DNA of 7,470 nt from Amoebophrya sp. A120 (Eukaryota; Protista; Dinoflagellata), in the NCBI GenBank assembly GCA_905178155.1, contig CAJINV010000101.1:1-7470 (forward strand). Reading direction: 5' to 3'. The notes under the pieces are model-generated. The model was given only the letters and a program-made list of their open reading frames with translations, was not told where the DNA came from and ran no database searches. Both the position numbers and the translations under genes were made by a program. The stretch's first letter is position 1. Every line of letters begins with the position of its first letter. Below, one piece after another: positions 31 through 7,470 of this stretch.

Positions 31-383
31 CACAACGTCTCTCTGCAAGACTTGGTGAAACTTCTCTCCATCGCGTACTTCCCGTACGAGAGCGACAAGG
101 CACTCCACGCCGCGGTCCAGGATGAATTCACGCAATTTGACCACAGCAGCCCGGAAGTGACGGCCAACAGTACCACTACACAGAGCGGCACGGGTAATCG
201 ACTTCTAAATCAGCCCGAACAGATTTCCTCCCGGTCGCCATCTAAATTGTCGGAAGCGAGCGTGAAAAGCGACAAAACAACAAGCTCATCGACCACGAGC
301 GCGATTTCTGCCAAAACCTTGAATCTCCTCCGCACACCGACGAAGAAAGAGAGAACCCAGGCGCTGCTCCGGTTCCGCGAAGT
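31..383 (+). CDS. ovoA: ovoA exon 1 (first visible; N-terminal extension and Ser/Thr-rich linker)
   Basis: HNVSLQDLVKLLSIAYFPYESDK...KERTQALLRFREV, in frame with exon 2 after removal of 384-643. No ATG start; preceded by the right end of an introner. Confidence 0.75.
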
Positions 384-3300
384 TATCAACTGCAAATATG
401 TCTGGGTCTCGAAGAAGGCAAGATTTTTCATCCTCAGCTAGCATGATTCTCAAGTCTGTCATGCACGTTACCCAAGAGCCTCGCTTTTCTGTCATGCGGA
501 AACGCAGTTTGTCATGCAGAATAGACTACAGTCCGACCACATCAGAAACTTGTCATGCTGGAACGGCACTTGCGGCACCCTAATCATTCGCCAAACAGCA
601 TCACAAGTTTCCAGACCCAGACATATTTGCAGTTGATAGAAGTGTTGAAGCACCAATTCCTGCAGACCTTCAACATCTACGAACGGCTTTTCTCCACCAT
701 CGCGACCTATCATTTGTAAAAACGTCCCCACACCAGGGTTGTCATGCAGATTTGCAACGACAGGAACATTTGTGATGCGCATCTCCATGAAAGGTATTTT
801 TAGTCGTGTTTTGGAATTTGTAATGCTGTAACCAGGATAGGCCGATGGATTTGTGATGCGTTTGTCCTTGCTACCCTGCACTTCACTACGAACTCCAACT
901 TGTGATGCGTGAGAACCAAAACTTCTAGGTTTGTGTTGCAAAGTCCCCATCTTGACTCTGTCGTGGGGACGTTTTTCCTTTTGATACGACCCCCGGACTG
1001 TTCTACCGCGCGGAGCGGTTGCGACACCACTTGATTTTCTATCTCGGCCACACTGCGGTTTTTTACTGGAACAAACTGATCTCCGCTGGCTGGGTGTGTG
1101 CGAACCAGCGCTTGCACGAGAAATTTGAAGCGATTTTCGCAGTGGGGGTGGACGAAATGAGCTGGGACGACCTGTTGGAAGATAATTACGACTGGTGCGG
1201 GTTTTCGGTGGAGCAGCAAGAGAACTATCGGAAGGAAGTGGAACAGTACAGGGCTTCCGTGCGGGAAGAGGTGTGTCGCCTGATCGACGAGTACGTGCTG
1301 GAGGAAGATATCACTGTTGGTCGGACGAATCCACGGACTGCACCAGATGAAAACAACACCTCTTTCCTCGCCTTTCAACCGGACGAACGGACTGTGGAAA
1401 AAAAGAACAGCAACATGAAAAAACCACATCAGCTATCAATTGCAAATATGTCTGGGTCTGGAAACTCGTGATGCTAAAATGTGCATGATGGAACAACTTC
1501 CGAATGCAGACCAGCATGACAACTTTCCGAAGCACTTTCTGATATGCTGCCCGCATGAGAAACTGCGTTTTTGCATGACAAAAATGGGTGCGGCTTTTGT
1601 CGGTTATGCAATACAGATTTCCCGGGAATGTAAAGCTAGCATTACAAGTTCCAACTTTCCAGACCCAGACATATTTGCATTTGATATCAGCAAGTGCGCG
1701 ACAACGCGCCACTGTTAAAGGCGACTTGCGGGAAACTCGTGTCGGAGTACATTTTGAAGTATCAAAAGGAAAAATCCCCCCTCCCCATATCAAAACGAAA
1801 TTTCTGATGCTGGATTTGGATACACAAATCAAATTTGTGTTGCAGTAGAGGAATGCACGCAGATCCTGAGCCTAGGCGGGGGCCTTTTGGTGTAGGCGCC
1901 TAGCATAGTAGACGGCTACCTTGTAGGCCGCAGAGCATTACAAATCGCCTGCATAACGTGGCGGCCAGCCTGAGTGTGCCTGCTTGCAAGACAGACCCGA
2001 TTTGTGGTCACAAATCAGCAACACAAATTATCGGAAACATACCTTTTCGATATGGGGAGAGGGGATTTTTCCTTTCGATATAAAGTACTGCACAACTACG
2101 TCCGCTACCAGCAACTTAGGTGGTGGAACCAACAACGCCCCCCTTGCGAAGCAGTTGCAAAATACCATGATCTGGATTCTGCTGATGGGCGCCGAGCACG
2201 AAAAGATCCACCAAGAAACCAGCTGCCCCATCCTGTCCCAGATGCCCTTGCAATACTTGAACAAGACACACCGGTGGCTGTACCCGATGGCAGAAGTCAA
2301 GACAAGTTCGTCCTCTTACTACGAAAGATCCGGCAACCCGCTGGTGCCCGTGAAAATGACGAGCTTGCTGAACACGGAGGATGAAGAACCCGCGGTGCAG
2401 CTCAGGTTCGGGAAAAACCACCTCGAATCGGATTTCTACGGGTGGGACAACGAGTTTGACAGTGAGCAGGCGAGTTTGTTGCCGTTTCAGGTCAGCCAAA
2501 CGCTGGTGTCCAACGCGGAGTTTTTAGAATTTGTGTTGGACGACGGGTACAAAAAAAAGCACTTCTGGACGGAGGAAGGGTGGCGGTTCGTCCAGGACCT
2601 CAACGTGGACCGGCCGCGGTTCTTATGCAAGAAGAAAAGTGTGGAAGTGTGAGTCTGTAATGCATAAGTGCGTACCACAATTATCACTTGTCATGCTAGC
2701 CAGCCACGATGTCCTTTTTTCATGAGTGTTTTTGAGTACTAGCTGCGCATGACAGGATTTCTTTGTCATACAGAGCAAATTTGTCATGCAGTCATGGCAC
2801 AAGACACGTTCACTAAACACAGTTTTTTTCCTTTGGACACTTCTGGCTCGACGCGGATAACGAAGTCGAAATGCAAACCGGCCGACCGTATAAAATGTAA
2901 AAATGTCTGGGCCTGGAAGATTCCCAGGCCTGTCATGCAGATTTTCCATGATCCATGTCGTCTGGAATGCAGGACCTAGCATGACAGGTTCTGTGAGAGT
3001 TCTATCATGCCTATCCGGCATGAGAAACTGCCTCTCACTTAGATCAAAATTGGACAGCTTTTGGCATTCATGCAACACAGATTTTTGCACGATCCAGAAT
3101 TAGCATTACAAGTTGCAACCTTCCAGACCCAGACATATTTGCAGTTCATAGACCGGTGACCAGCAGCGTGACGAAAGCTGAGCTGGACCAGGTTTTACTA
3201 CAACTTGATGGTAAGAACAAAAACCACGAGCAGATGCAAAAGAAACAGGACAAGCACAAAAATTTCGTCTACCGGGCCATGCTCTCCATCATCCCCATGC

Positions 3301-6300
3301 CGTGGGACTGGCCGGCGGAGGTCAACTATGCACTGCAAATCTGTTTGGTGTTCTGGAACAATGCTTAAATTTGTCATGCCTTTCTAGCATGACAACTCTG
3401 AGGTTTCTTATGCCCTCTTGCCTGTCATGCAAAAACGCACTCTCGTCCCAACATGCGGAATTCGCAAAACATCAGAAATTTGTGATGCGTGGCTGCATTT
3501 TCAAGTACGCTCATCAATCGCAGACTTGCATCACAAGTTCGTCCCAGACCTAAACATTTTTGCATTTGATATGAACCAGCTCGAGGCAGCGGCGTTTTGC
3601 AAGTGGAAGGCGGAGAAATTGAGCCAGCCGGATTTGCGACTGCTGGGGCATCCAGAGCAACTGTACCTGGCGCTGCATTGCGAAAAGGGGTTTGGGAAGA
3701 ACGCAAATTTAGCAGGTTTTGCGTCGCCGACCAGCGTGAATGTGCACTATGGGTACAGCAATTGTAGTACACCGTCGGAGGTGGATTCATCATCGTCAAA
3801 TAACCCGAAAGAGAAAAAAACGAAAATCTACGACATTGAGGGGAATGTTTGGCGGCACTCGATCTCCGTACTCACCCTAATGGACGGGTTTCAGCCGCAC
3901 ATTGCCTACGACGATTTTACCCTCCCTACCATTGATGGGGAGCACAACTTTATCGCAAGAAAAACTGTCTCAGTCTCAAAACTTTGCAGACGCAGCAATA
4001 CAAATTTGCCAAGCAAGAAACAAAAAATCTGTGATGCGTTCAAACATCAAGGGATAACACGTAAGGAAGGACGTCTTTCTTGATGCATTTCCGGCATGAC
4101 AAAAAACTGTCTCAAGGAAGTTGCGCATTACAGCTTGAGAGTGAGTAGACTGTGACAGTTTTTTCTCGCGACAAGTTTTATCCTGGGCGGGTCCTGGACC
4201 AGTATTGGAAACTGCGCGAACCCGGGGTCCAGGTACGGGTTCCGCCGGCACTTTTACCAGTACGCAGGGATCCGATTCTGTAGCGACTTCGGCGGGAAAA
4301 ATCTGCCGGTACTTCTTGTTTTTCGTACGAACTTCTCGATGTAAGTTGTAGCCATTTTATACGGAGGACCTTTCGTCCAGTACAACGACCCACATGAGCT
4401 ATTCAAACTATTGTGTTCATAATTCACATTTTTGGGAACGACCGTTTAATTTGATGTTGATCACACGAGACAAAGCAGAAGAAACAACTTTTCACGGTCT
4501 TCTTCCACCTATCCCCTACGAAAAACCTCTCGTGGTCTTGCAATAAAAGGGCGAAATACTAGAAACGAGTCGGTACTAGAGTGGTGAAAGTATATGTGCT
4601 TGTCTCGCGCAAAAATACAGAGGCTTCATTTGTTCGACCTTCTCTCACCAAAAACAGATGATCCACACGTCTGCACCCAAGATCCACGCGGCGACCCCGC
4701 TGGGCGTGAAACTTTCGGAGCACTACTACGAACTGTACGAGAGTCCAAACGCACTGCTGGGGCTGGATCAAGCCTACCTCGAACAGTACTTGCAAAAAGA
4801 TCACAAGCCGGTGTCCAACTGGCCACGGCTCTTCGGCGAGATTGCTAGCTACGTCGTCGATGCGGTGCAGCAAGGGACGAAACAGGATGAAGGAGGACCA
4901 CAGCCAATAAACACGAATAACAACACGGGTTCCCCTATCCTGAGGAAAAACGTCCCCACCCCAGAGTTGTCATGCAGATTTGCAATGACAAGGAAATTTG
5001 TGATGCGCATACCCATGGTAGACATTTCCAATCGTATTTTGGAATTTGTGATGCTGATAACAGGATAAGCAAATGAATCTGTGATGCGGCTGCACTTGCT
5101 AACCTGCACTACACTGCGGAGTGCAACTTGTCATGCGTGACTCCCAAAACTCCTAGGTTTGTGTTGCAAAATCCCCATCCTGACTCTGGTGTGGGGACGT
5201 TTTTGCTCAGGATGTCCCCCCGCCTGAAAGTCCTGGTCGCAAACGGGTCCGTCGGTCGCTGCTCGTTGGATATCACACAGAAAAAAGCAGGCAGGTCAAA
5301 CTTGTAATGCGACAATAAATAGACAAAAAAAATCTGTGTTGCATGTCCTGAACGGCATGCTACGGGGTTGCGCATGACAGATTTTACTGCGTATTCATTT
5401 TTGCATCACAAACATGCCCTGCCTGGTTTTTTCTGTGGGATATTGGAGTTGTTGAAGAAGTGCAAGAAGCTCGACGTGACCCACACGGACCCTATCGAAT
5501 GCAAATATGTCTGGGTCTGGAAGGTCGCAAGACTTGTCATGCAGGTTTTCCATGACAAATGCGGTCTGTCACATATGAACTAGCATGACAGATTCTGCGC
5601 CACCTCTATCATGCATCGTCTGCATGAGAAACTGCCTCTCAACTTGGTCAAAAGTGGGCAGTTGTTGGTAATCACGCAACACAGATTTTTGCACTATCCA
5701 GAATTAGCATGACAAGTTCCAGCGTTCCAGACCCAGACATATTTGCAATGCATAGACCCAACGGCGAATCTGCTCGCCCCGTTACAAGAGCTGTTGGACT
5801 CGGGGAAAGTGCAGTGGCGACAGACGATCGAGGGCGAGATCTGCGACCAAAGGGAGTACTTGCTGATGTCGGACGATAAAAATTCTATCACAGACGACAA
5901 CCATGGCAGCAACAGCAACACCACAAAGTCTTTTTTAGAAAAAAACGACAACACCTGCAATTTGGTTCAGATCCAAGACTACAAAACGTCATTGAACAAG
6001 CTCCCGACGAACCAGACCTTCGACATTTTACTTGCCGATTTCCGCTACACGAACTGCGAAGAAGAGCTAGCTGTTATCGTAAGGAAAAATCCCCCCTCCC
6101 CATCTTGAAAAGAAAATTTGTGATGCTGATTTGTGACCACAAATCAGCTTTGTCTTGCGTACAAGGCAAACGGCACCCATGTGGCGCATTGGAAAGCGAG
6201 TCTGTCATCCGTTTTCGCCTATGGCAGACTTGTTTCCCATGCTCATCTGCTAGCCGGGTGAGTAGTCACATGGGCTCAGAATCTGCCGGCAACCTGTTGC

Positions 6301-7151
6301 TGCAATACAAAGCTCATTTGTGTACACAAATCCAGCAACACAAATTGTCTTTTGAATATGAGGTGGAGCTTTTTTCACTTTGATAGCCGCCCTCGCCTCC
6401 CGCTGCCACGGAGTTCTACTGCTCGCGACGCTGCATATCAAATGCAAATATGTCTGGGTCTGGAAACTTGTGATGCTAAAACGTGGATGATAGAAACAGT
6501 CCCGAATGCAACCCAGCATGACAACTTTCTAGAACGCTTTCTCATAGGAAATCCGCATGAGAAACTGCGTTTTTGTATGTACAAAAGAGGCCGCGACTTT
6601 TGCTGGTTACGCAATACAGATTTCCTAGGTATCGAAAGCAAGCATTACAAGTTCCAACCCTCCAGACCCAGACATATTTGCATTTGATACTGCACAAAGT
6701 CGAGCAGCTCCCCGGGTTCGAAAAGTCGGATTTGCTGGACAGCGTCCGCGCGGAGGCCCTCGGTTTTTTCACCTCCAATGGCGACCGGGAGCCGGAAAGG
6801 ACGAAATCTATCAAATGCAAAAATGTCTGGGTCTGGGAGATCGCGAGACTTGTCATGCTACTCTGGCATGACACTGGAATCTGTGTTGCGTAGCCGCATA
6901 GAGCTCCTCTTCCTTGTCATGCAAAAACGCAGTTTCTCATGCGGAGGACGCAATTCAGAACCACGAAAAAACTTGTCATGCTTGGCAGCGCATTACAGCG
7001 TGCTCGCTATTCCTTTCCTTGCATCACAAGTTTCAAGACCCAGACATATTTGCAATGCATAAAGTCCCATTGGAGACGAATGCGGGCGAAGGGGGTGGCG
7101 CACTTGGAGAAGCAAACGATCCACAAACACCAGTTTTTCCGCAGTTACCTT
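31..7151 (+). CDS. ovoA: OvoA-like 5-histidylcysteine sulfoxide synthase / methyltransferase (ovothiol synthase), multi-exon, 5' and 3' partial
   Basis: Manual join of 31-383, 644-707, 992-1433, 1692-1759, 2086-2623, 2845-2888, 3156-3326, 3577-3950, 4179-4308, 4658-4935, 5220-5270, 5448-5492, 5760-6074, 6391-6435, 6695-6808, 7067-7151 gives 3117 nt (1039 codons) with no stop. Motifs recognised from memory as OvoA-family, in the expected order: LRHHLIFYLGHT, FAVGVDEMSWDDL, MGAEHEKIHQETS (HX3HXE), YGWDNE, VSNAEFLEFV, MPWDWPAEVN, GNVW, YDDF, GGSWTSIGN, RRHFYQYAGIR, then a methyltransferase-like region. Exact junctions can slide within the 5-nt DRs. Confidence 0.92.
384..638. mobile_element. Family A TIR introner, 255 nt (non-canonical intron 1, orientation R)
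   Basis: Perfect 26-nt TIR TATCAACTGCAAATATGTCTGGGTCT; DR GAAGT at 379-383 and 639-643. Confidence 0.92.
644..707 (+). CDS. ovoA: ovoA exon 2
   Basis: LKHQFLQTFNIYERLFSTIAT, resembling the first helix of the OvoA DinB-like domain; in frame on both sides. Confidence 0.85.
708..986. mobile_element. Family B TIR introner, 279 nt (intron 2)
   Basis: TATCATTTGTAAAAACGTCCCCAC ... GTGGGGACGTTTTTCCTTTTGATA; DR CGACC at 703-707 and 987-991; colinear with and the same length as 4936-5214. Confidence 0.92.
992..1433 (+). CDS. ovoA: ovoA exon 3 (DinB-like domain)
   Basis: PGLFYRAERLRHHLIFYLGHTAVFYWNKL...FEAIFAVGVDEMSWDDL; overlaps ORF 1019..1471. Confidence 0.93.
1434..1686. mobile_element. Family A TIR introner, 253 nt (intron 3, orientation F)
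   Basis: TATCAATTGCAAATATGTCTGGGTCTGGAAA ... TTTCCAGACCCAGACATATTTGCATTTGATA; DR TCAGC at 1429-1433 and 1687-1691; close relative of 6436-6689. Confidence 0.92.
1692..1759 (+). CDS. ovoA: ovoA exon 4
   Basis: QVRDNAPLLKATCGKLVSEYILK; open and in frame between two elements; no recognised motif. Confidence 0.75.
1760..2080. mobile_element. Family C TIR introner, 321 nt (intron 4)
   Basis: TATCAAAAGGAAAAATCCCCCCTCCCCATATC ... GATATGGGGAGAGGGGATTTTTCCTTTCGATA; DR TGAAG (1755-1759) / TAAAG (2081-2085). Confidence 0.9.
2086..2623 (+). CDS. ovoA: ovoA exon 5 (HX3HXE iron motif, start of FGE-like domain)
   Basis: IWILLMGAEHEKIHQETS...FYGWDNEF...VSNAEFLEFVLDDGY...WTEEGW...RPRF; overlaps ORF 1984..2652. 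Confidence 0.93.
2624..2839. mobile_element. Degenerate TIR introner, 216 nt (intron 5, tentatively family D)
   Basis: TATGCAAGAAGAAAAGTGTG ... CACAGTTTTTTTCCTTTGGACA, a decayed IR; DR GTTCT (2619-2623) / CTTCT (2840-2844); internal TGTNATGC motifs. Confidence 0.75.
2845..2888 (+). CDS. ovoA: ovoA exon 6
   Basis: Completes PRF-W across the junction, then LDADNEVEMQTGRP; in frame. Confidence 0.8.
2889..3150. mobile_element. Family A TIR introner, 262 nt (intron 6, orientation F)
   Basis: TATAAAATGTAAAAATGTCTGGGCCTGGAAG ... CTTCCAGACCCAGACATATTTGCAGTTCATA; DR GACCG at 2884-2888 and 3151-3155; same length as and colinear with 5493-5754. Confidence 0.92.
3156..3326 (+). CDS. ovoA: ovoA exon 7
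   Basis: ...YRAMLSIIPMPWDWPAEVN; overlaps ORF 3156..3368. Confidence 0.9.
3327..3571. mobile_element. Family A TIR introner, 245 nt (intron 7, orientation R, decayed)
   Basis: TATGCACTGCAAATCTGTTTGG ... CCAGACCTAAACATTTTTGCATTTGATA; DR TCAAC (3322-3326) / TGAAC (3572-3576). Confidence 0.87.
3577..3950 (+). CDS. ovoA: ovoA exon 8 (FGE-like domain)
   Basis: QLEAAAFCKWK...YDIEGNVW...GFQPHIAYDDFTLPTIDGEHNF; overlaps ORF 3418..4083. Confidence 0.92.
3951..4173. mobile_element. Family D TIR introner, 223 nt (intron 8)
   Basis: TATCGCAAGAAAAACTGTCTCAGTCT ... AGACTGTGACAGTTTTTTCTCGCGACA; degenerate DR AACTT (3946-3950) / AGTTT (4174-4178); contains an in-frame stop (4081-4083). Confidence 0.85.
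4179..4308 (+). CDS. ovoA: ovoA exon 9 (end of FGE-like domain)
   Basis: ILGGSWTSIGNCANPGSRYGFRRHFYQYAGIRFCSDFGGKNLP; absent from the ORF track. The 3' boundary could instead be 4340. Confidence 0.88.
4309..4657 (+). other. Probable canonical GT-AG spliceosomal intron (intron 9)
   Basis: CCG|GTACTT ... AAAAACAG|ATG, phase 0, in frame; more AT-rich than the exons; no TIR, DR or TGTNATGC motif seen. An alternative in-frame pair is GTAAGT at 4341 with TACAG ending at 4620. Confidence 0.65.
4658..4935 (+). CDS. ovoA: ovoA exon 10 (start of methyltransferase-like region)
   Basis: MIHTSAPK...KLSEHYYE...NWPRLFGE...NTGSP, preceded by AAAAACAG; overlaps ORF 4658..5068. Confidence 0.78.
4936..5214. 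mobile_element. Family B TIR introner, 279 nt (intron 10)
   Basis: TATCCTGAGGAAAAACGTCCCCACCCCAGAGT ... ACTCTGGTGTGGGGACGTTTTTGCTCAGGATG; DR TCCCC at 4931-4935 and 5215-5219. Confidence 0.92.
5220..5270 (+). CDS. ovoA: ovoA exon 11 (degenerate SAM motif I)
   Basis: RLKVLVANGSVGRCSLE, comparable to the typical LDLGCAVGRxSFE. Confidence 0.82.
5271..5442. mobile_element. Family E TIR introner, 172 nt (intron 11)
   Basis: TATCACACAGAAAAAAGCAGGCAGG ... CCTGCCTGGTTTTTTCTGTGGGATA; DR TTGGA at 5266-5270 and 5443-5447. Confidence 0.9.
5448..5492 (+). CDS. ovoA: ovoA exon 12
   Basis: LLKKCKKLDVTHTDP; in frame on both sides. Confidence 0.8.
5493..5754. mobile_element. Family A TIR introner, 262 nt (intron 12, orientation F)
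   Basis: TATCGAATGCAAATATGTCTGGGTCTGGAA ... TTCCAGACCCAGACATATTTGCAATGCATA; DR GACCC at 5488-5492 and 5755-5759. Confidence 0.92.
5760..6074 (+). CDS. ovoA: ovoA exon 13
   Basis: TANLLAPLQELLDSGKVQWRQTIEGEI...FDILLADFRY...EELAV; overlaps ORF 5743..6108. Confidence 0.82.
6075..6385. mobile_element. Family C TIR introner, 311 nt (intron 13, inverted relative to intron 4)
   Basis: TATCGTAAGGAAAAATCCCCCCTCCCCATC ... ATATGAGGTGGAGCTTTTTTCACTTTGATA; DR GCTGT (6070-6074) / GCCGC (6386-6390). Confidence 0.85.
6391..6435 (+). CDS. ovoA: ovoA exon 14
   Basis: LASRCHGVLLLATLH, comparable to the methyltransferase LxPGGxLxL strand; in frame. Confidence 0.78.
6436..6689. mobile_element. Family A TIR introner, 254 nt (intron 14, orientation F)
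   Basis: Perfect TIR TATCAAATGCAAATATGTCTGGGTCTGGA; DR CTGCA at 6431-6435 and 6690-6694. Confidence 0.93.
6695..6808 (+). CDS. ovoA: ovoA exon 15
   Basis: KVEQLPGFEKSDLLDSVRAEALGFFTSNGDREPERTKS; in frame. Confidence 0.78.
6809..7061. mobile_element. Family A TIR introner, 253 nt (intron 15, orientation R)
   Basis: TATCAAATGCAAAAATGTCTGGGTCT ... AGACCCAGACATATTTGCAATGCATA; DR AAATC (6804-6808) / AAGTC (7062-7066). Confidence 0.92.
7067..7151 (+). CDS. ovoA: ovoA exon 16 (last visible, near C-terminus)
   Basis: HWRRMRAKGVAHLEKQTIHKHQFFRSYL, loosely similar to the OvoA C-terminal VPFVIRETxRKFQH segment; no stop codon reached. Confidence 0.72.
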
Positions 7152-7405
7152 TATCAAATGCAAATATGTCTGGTTCTGGAAGGGTGTAAGTTGTAATGCT
7201 GCATTTGGATTCCAAAAAAAATCTGTGTTGCAGGAATAGCAAAAGGGGTGCGTTTTTTGCCACGCGGAGGGAGTATTTCTCATGCAGTATGGGCATCAGA
7301 AAGCCGTCACAATATCTGTGACGCTAGGGCATGCATCACAGACATCGCCGGTGATACAAAATGTGCATGACAAACTTCCAGACCCAGACATATTTGCACT
7401 TGATA
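7152..7405. mobile_element. Family A TIR element, 254 nt, apparently hybrid (closes the circle; orientation R)
   Basis: Normal TIRs, but the flanks ACCTT (7147-7151) and CACAA (7406-7410) do not match and the junction is out of frame. Confidence 0.85.
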
Positions 7406-7470
7406 CACAACGTCTCTCTGCAAGACTTGGTGAAACTTCTCTCCATCGCGTACTTCCCGTACGAGAGCGA
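7376..7470 (+). repeat. Exact 95-nt terminal direct repeat of 1-95 (circular or tandem contig overlap; unit 7375 bp)
   Basis: TTCCAGACCC...GTACGAGAGCGA is identical at both ends of the window. Confidence 0.95.

Follow-up and report, generated by a model that had tools for sequence, protein, structure and literature searches.

We analysed a 7,470-nt contig of Amoebophrya sp. A120 (the window), in which the same stretch stands at both ends and a family A introner links the last exon to the first. The window represents an inner stretch of 7,375 bp from a single linear Amoebophrya gene, an ovothiol-synthesis fusion, and the linking introner (the junction element) is a hybrid made up of two different family A introns from that gene. 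The closure would be artificial, made through a 30-nt terminal repeat by the assembler or in the library, and we give this explanation a probability of about 0.68. In the living genome the hybrid closure probably does not exist.

The plus strand of the window is broken by 15 elements, each enclosed between inverted repeats beginning with TAT. Self-comparison of the window showed that positions 1-95 and 7376-7470 are identical and that the terminal repeat is exactly 95 nt long. Each copy comprises the final 30 nt of a terminal inverted repeat of family A and then 65 nt of exon, and would represent an assembler overlap. The junction element (7152-7405) is 254 nt in length, compared with 245-262 nt for the seven other family A copies in the window. 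Its left (7152-7181) and right (7376-7405) terminal inverted repeats, 30 nt each, are complementary at 28/30 positions, with a mismatch at 2 columns. The hairpin of the element was calculated at -101.9 kcal/mol, and those of the other elements at -68.5 to -103.2 kcal/mol. The element is also repeated in the genome, as introners are, with seven other copies in the window and 118 distinct copies in 85 control loci (L001-L085), where its closest relative was 80% alike.

The flanks of the junction element set it apart. ACCTT on its left (7147-7151, plus strand) and CACAA on its right (7406-7410, plus strand, equal to 31-35) differ in 4/5 letters, and neither 5-mer was found again within 14 nt on the opposite side. 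The other 14 of the 15 inverted-repeat introns showed 0-2 mismatches of 5 between their flanks (8 with none, 4 with one and 2 with two). At the pooled divergence of these 14 introns, 0.114 per site, four or more mismatches would be expected with P = 8e-4. The junction element is the only one of the 15 with non-matching flanks, and the 3-5-nt border direct repeat that is a trait of A120 introners is absent from it, because its two ends stem from different insertion sites. It joins a phase 0 exon to an exon needing phase 2. If it were spliced like other introners, the frame would shift and a stop would follow after 29 codons, at 123-125, so that its removal from the message does not restore the frame as that of an introner does. 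The exact repeat, the normal length, the sole unrelated pair of flanks and the conflict of phase had been pointed out in an earlier note on this DNA and are borne out here.

With the 14 ordinary introners (each with one flank copy) and a canonical GT-AG intron at 4309-4657 removed, one open frame of 1,039 codons extended from 31 to 7151 and contained no stop. No in-frame ATG was present in the first exon stretch (31-383). The unit thus has no start codon, stop codon or intergenic DNA, as the earlier note had stated. The ring lacks a start codon and a stop lies 29 codons after the join; therefore no product of its own is predicted.

The same gene was found in linear form. The exon at 989-1432 was a 100% match to P0001, a 1,872-aa protein of Amoebophrya sp. 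A120 encoded on an 11,760,491-bp contig. The window exons together matched P0001 at 100% over 728 aa and at 99.5% over 188 aa, and correspond to residues 619-1534, with 618 residues before them and 338 after. The exon before the join was accordingly not near the C-terminus, where the earlier note had placed it. Both parental junctions predicted in that note were present at the protein level in P0001. The left flank represents the downstream parent intron's target-site copy, beyond which P0001 goes on with residue 1535. The right flank, the target-site copy of the upstream parent intron, encodes residues 619-620. P0002, a related protein, was colinear across both junctions.

The upstream junction was also seen in a spliced contig, X3 record 9 (6,083 nt), at its loose end. 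X3 and X7 were taken as RNA by guess, and X3 record 9 behaves as spliced: a splice model fitted it at 7/7 listed pieces, and the introners up to 6072 agreed with it. It contains 2,238 nt ahead of window position 31, and its loose end encodes the P0001 residues preceding 619. The spliced contig therefore links exon 31 to another upstream exon, not to the last exon of the window. By coordinates it extends 728 nt past 7151. The linear parent locus (P0001, X3 record 9) is predicted equally by an artefact and by a circle.

One explanation weighed was a heritable intragenic tandem duplication, in which the order would be upstream exons, unit, hybrid intron, unit and downstream exons, and whose message would stop 29 codons past the join, before the last methyltransferase domain is reached. 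Its graph shape would be the same as that of a circle (scenario S4 of the toy graphs described below), but P0001 holds one copy of the window exons, and the spliced contig is unbroken from the true upstream exon into 31 and, by length, past 7151, a continuity that should have been interrupted if a second spliced form were abundant. In X1, a DNA-like run, seven contigs covered 4,115 window letters with 0 differences at depths of 39-48, compared with about 41-50 at other loci. The unit was at single-copy depth there, and the doubled depth of a duplicated unit was not seen in these contig means. X1 depth showed no sign of duplication or amplification of the unit. We regard the duplication as the least probable of the explanations weighed.

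Among the filtered matches listed, no contig piece bridged 7152-7405. X3 carries window letters at 7246-7356, inside the junction element, at a depth of 21-25; this may be unspliced message (a retained intron) or a like copy elsewhere, and it was not used as evidence. At most of the listed places within other introners there was no matching X3 contig. X1 contigs lacked the window letter at 7246 and 7261, and similar holes occurred in other introners, so these too were not used.

The control loci were fetched by a family C motif and comprised 849,462 letters, about 0.72 Mb of them distinct; the 79 loci with listed names share one assembly prefix and may come from a strain other than that of the window. 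The window's gene was not found in the 85 loci, and tblastn matches were only to introner sequence read into the end of P0001. Across 236 control ends, family A conservation dropped from 0.90 at column 30 to 0.69 at column 31, and the contig start falls exactly on column 30, the innermost column of the 30-nt terminal repeat that the copies share. This start places the join most probably inside the right terminal repeat (7376-7405). The earlier note had suggested a crossover between two family A copies, possibly inside this repeat, and both the drop in conservation and the positions of the graph nodes given below agree with it. Identity over repeat columns 8-30 was found in 8.5% of family A end pairs. 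Among 27 control ends with this identity, 9 broke at column 30 and 18 at column 31. No interior breakpoint was detected in the junction element: the two-parent gain was 7, compared with 0-12 across 42 control tests, which included one element twice, a test of low power because no close relative was sampled.

For k = 96, a 95-nt overlap equals k - 1. We built toy k = 96 graphs with simulated parents in several scenarios (S1, S2, S4, S5, S7 and S8). A node at position 1 was obtained only if the parents shared the terminal repeat alone and junction molecules were present (S4, S5). When the parents shared long blocks (S1, S2, S8), nodes appeared at 7152, 7247 or 7311, never at 1. These positions do not suit a pure repeat collapse, in which the parent introns would share at least 95 identical letters, as in a local, recent copy, and the assembler would have folded the stretch between them into a loop. 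In favour of a collapse, 97 identical introner pairs are recorded for A120 (PMC7789003), and when both outer flanks were lost (S7) the collapse gave a pure cycle with an arbitrary start. However, an arbitrary cut would lie within 2 nt of the repeat edge with P about 0.0007, an exact shared 95-mer occurred in just 1/6,903 control pairs, which stand in for the parent introns' own sequences, and even the nearest control relative of the junction element was just 80% alike. A plain collapse thus appears to fit poorly, in agreement with the earlier note, which had somewhat disfavoured it, and we hold it to be very improbable.

Under the explanation we prefer, a false closure, the downstream intron would have supplied the body of the junction element, and the sequence would change to that of the upstream intron within the last 30 nt or fewer. 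Two routes may lead there. The assembler may have turned a linear contig into a ring, each of its two dead ends having stopped in a family A terminal repeat, or a polymerase may have switched template at the repeat during library amplification. Within this explanation we assign about two thirds to the assembler route and about one third to the library route.

Several points weigh against a false closure. An artefact and a rare circle are parted only by prior odds and by the controls. The toy scenario S5, with real junction molecules and the upstream parent present and the downstream branch missing, returned the exact window, albeit by construction, and a natural circle would also supply such molecules. 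The course of X3 record 9 past 7151 was inferred from length, the listed pieces reaching 6072. The X1 depths are contig means rather than copy numbers, and the window need not derive from X1. The assembler route depends on gap-closing over a short overlap, as assemblers may do. For the library route, in the part of the study available, direct joins of less than 10 kb made up only 11/475 of displacement-amplification chimeras, with overlaps of 2-21 nt (PMC1855051).

A natural extrachromosomal circle would have formed when a break or a replication slip was repaired across two introner ends that lie 7.4 kb from each other and are identical over 23-30 nt. The middle of the gene would be looped out, and the ring would retain a hybrid introner. 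In favour of this, the join is precise, and the element is of normal length with a normal hairpin. The contig start is the last conserved repeat column, where the branch of the upstream parent would enter, and position 1 is a node in the toy scenarios S4 and S5. Repeat-mediated circles are described in yeast, in the part of the source available (PMC4751563). However, a rare ring would seldom outweigh the chromosomal path in an assembly made without circle enrichment, X1 depth showed no excess, and the ring has no promoter, no start codon and no evident selective value. The same position is also reached by ordinary contig ends. In the control loci, 22 of the 107 true contig ends (duplicate ends removed, L080-L085 left out) lay inside an introner, and 3/107 lay 26-34 letters from an element end, like the start of the window. 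Since these ordinary ends lie at the repeat edge, a dead end there needs no circle. The natural circle is therefore considered unlikely. Of the three options offered in the earlier note, chimera is the one we rank first, with circle and tandem duplication below it. Its suggestions that the circle might be real, the fragment amplified or exons shuffled were not supported, as both a chromosome-scale record and RNA show the gene in linear form, X1 depth is single-copy, and contig ends arise at this position without a circle.

Unmatched flanks were also found in a few control introners. Among the 118 family A control copies, 115 had 0-2 flank mismatches, one had a shifted low-complexity repeat and two were unmatched. 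In family B, 1/59 had 3 mismatches, and in family C, 2/95 had at least 3, one of these having its repeat shifted by 3 letters. The introners with unmatched flanks include L058:366-616, L070:834-1093, L047:9469-9791 and L030:4430-4733; the first three, two of family A and one of family C, have 93-95% relatives. Misjoins fit these copies as well as recombination does, although under a circle they could be reciprocal deletion scars. It is possible to go further and propose that the 30-nt introner terminal repeats are genome-wide sites of short-homology recombination in vivo, where multi-exon gene segments are looped out as circles and hybrid introners stay behind. The chromosomal scars would then be the 1-2% of copies in other contigs whose flanks do not match, and introners would drive deletion, duplication and shuffling of exons. 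We consider this proposal doubtful.

If the closure is an artefact, it carries a practical warning: a 'circular' contig in an introner-rich genome can be a gene fragment closed via a 30-nt intron tip that two introns share, and joins of this kind are easily flagged by a target-site repeat that does not match. If the junction is real, introners would rearrange exons through their terminal repeats, and the window would be a concrete case provided that junction reads exist in unamplified DNA.

The 14 ordinary introners with matching 5-nt flanks lie between 384 and 7061. Family A is found at 384-638, 1434-1686, 2889-3150, 3327-3571, 5493-5754, 6436-6689 and 6809-7061, family B at 708-986 and 4936-5214, and family C at 1760-2080 and 6075-6385. 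Other introners occupy 2624-2839, 3951-4173 and 5271-5442. The first exon stretch (31-383, plus strand) encodes the end of the lyase-like domain, a linker and the start of OvoA, and corresponds to P0001 from residue 619. It is followed by eight OvoA sulfoxide-synthase exons on the plus strand within 644-4308 (644-707, 992-1433, 1692-1759, 2086-2623, 2845-2888, 3156-3326, 3577-3950 and 4179-4308), whose borders are uncertain inside the 5-nt repeats. Seven plus-strand exons within 4658-7151 (4658-4935, 5220-5270, 5448-5492, 5760-6074, 6391-6435, 6695-6808 and 7067-7151) form a first, divergent methyltransferase-like part, a label that rests on position and on a weak second TIGR04345 stretch. The plus-strand intron at 4309-4657 is not intergenic DNA. 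An alternative in which the window holds the whole gene in permuted form, starting at 4658 and stopping at 4342-4344, was rejected, as the coordinates of the spliced contig fit this intron.

The introners at 2624-2839, 3951-4173 and 4936-5214 are older elements in which the last three letters have drifted (ACA, ACA and ATG). GTGAGT occurs close to one end of the first two, and all three agree with the spliced contig by length. The flank copies at 6070-6074 (GCTGT) and 6386-6390 (GCCGC) have diverged. P0001 has Ala-Ala there and the spliced contig follows the left copy to 6072; therefore the splice likely falls inside the 5-nt repeat, after the third or fourth letter. Introner splice sites can thus be mapped from diverged flanking repeats.

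The domain order of the gene is a PLP-lyase-like domain, an OvoA sulfoxide synthase and methyltransferases, one of them C-terminal. P0001 scored 396 bits against TIGR04344 (sulfoxide synthase, cut-off 400) and 100 against TIGR04345 (methyltransferase, cut-off 170), and its best solved relative was 8khq_A (E 7e-90). The predicted product of the host gene would work like OvoA. The P0001 gene model lacks 123 codons from 4658-5492, in three exons, which the spliced contig supports, the first being seen directly in it and the other two by length. The last ~45 residues of P0001 (within 1827-1872) match introner DNA in many loci, and the model likely runs on into a final intron. The PLP-lyase-like domain is fused ahead of OvoA in both P0001 and P0002 of Amoebophrya. 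Residues 9-613 of P0001, upstream of window position 31, were 29% identical to P0019, a Hydractinia fusion (E 3e-61), with the motifs DGTQ and STHKW in common. Among the papers listed by a literature search, none dealt with a PLP-lyase-like/OvoA fusion in Amoebophrya. The Hydra fusion has been called the only reported case, and the same source reports that no homologue of the PLP-lyase-like domain was found in alveolates (PMC8433421). The comparison with P0019 suggests that the whole fusion may be common to hydrozoans and alveolates.

The elements of the window can be compared with several known systems. The introners of A120 (Farhat et al. 2021, PMC7789003) are described, in the part available, as repeated non-canonical introns of about 250 nt with TAT-start inverted repeats, short border direct repeats and a hairpin, as here, and the window exons match an A120 protein at 99.5-100%; the junction element differs in its missing direct repeat. 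Hybrids or circles are not described in that part, and the word 'recombination' occurs 0 times in its main text. In a shallow check of literature titles and abstract openings, no introner-mediated circle or hybrid closure was found, and a junction motif and the family C motif gave no match in viral contigs. In the yeast Ty circles formed between long terminal repeats (LTRs), DNA between two repeat copies is likewise closed through one hybrid copy (PMC4751563, as far as available). They differ in using whole-LTR homology, where 30 nt or less is likely here, and in carrying a transposon rather than a gene fragment; the present ring is known from assembled sequence alone. Amplification chimeras (Lasken and Stockwell 2007, PMC1855051, in part) resemble the window in that segments separated by less than 10 kb are joined through short homology, the downstream segment coming ahead of the upstream. 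Direct joins at such distances are scarce among them, overlaps reach only 21 nt, and the library type of the window may differ. False circular contigs, likewise joined through short shared sequence, may be a further class for comparison. The hydrozoan OvoB-like/OvoA fusions (P0019 and P0030; PMC8433421, in part) have a PLP-lyase-like N-terminus, an OvoA sulfoxide synthase and a methyltransferase in one chain, as here, whereas the Amoebophrya protein is longer and its gene intron-rich, the window being only its middle. The elements are known A120 introners and the gene is an ovothiol-type fusion.

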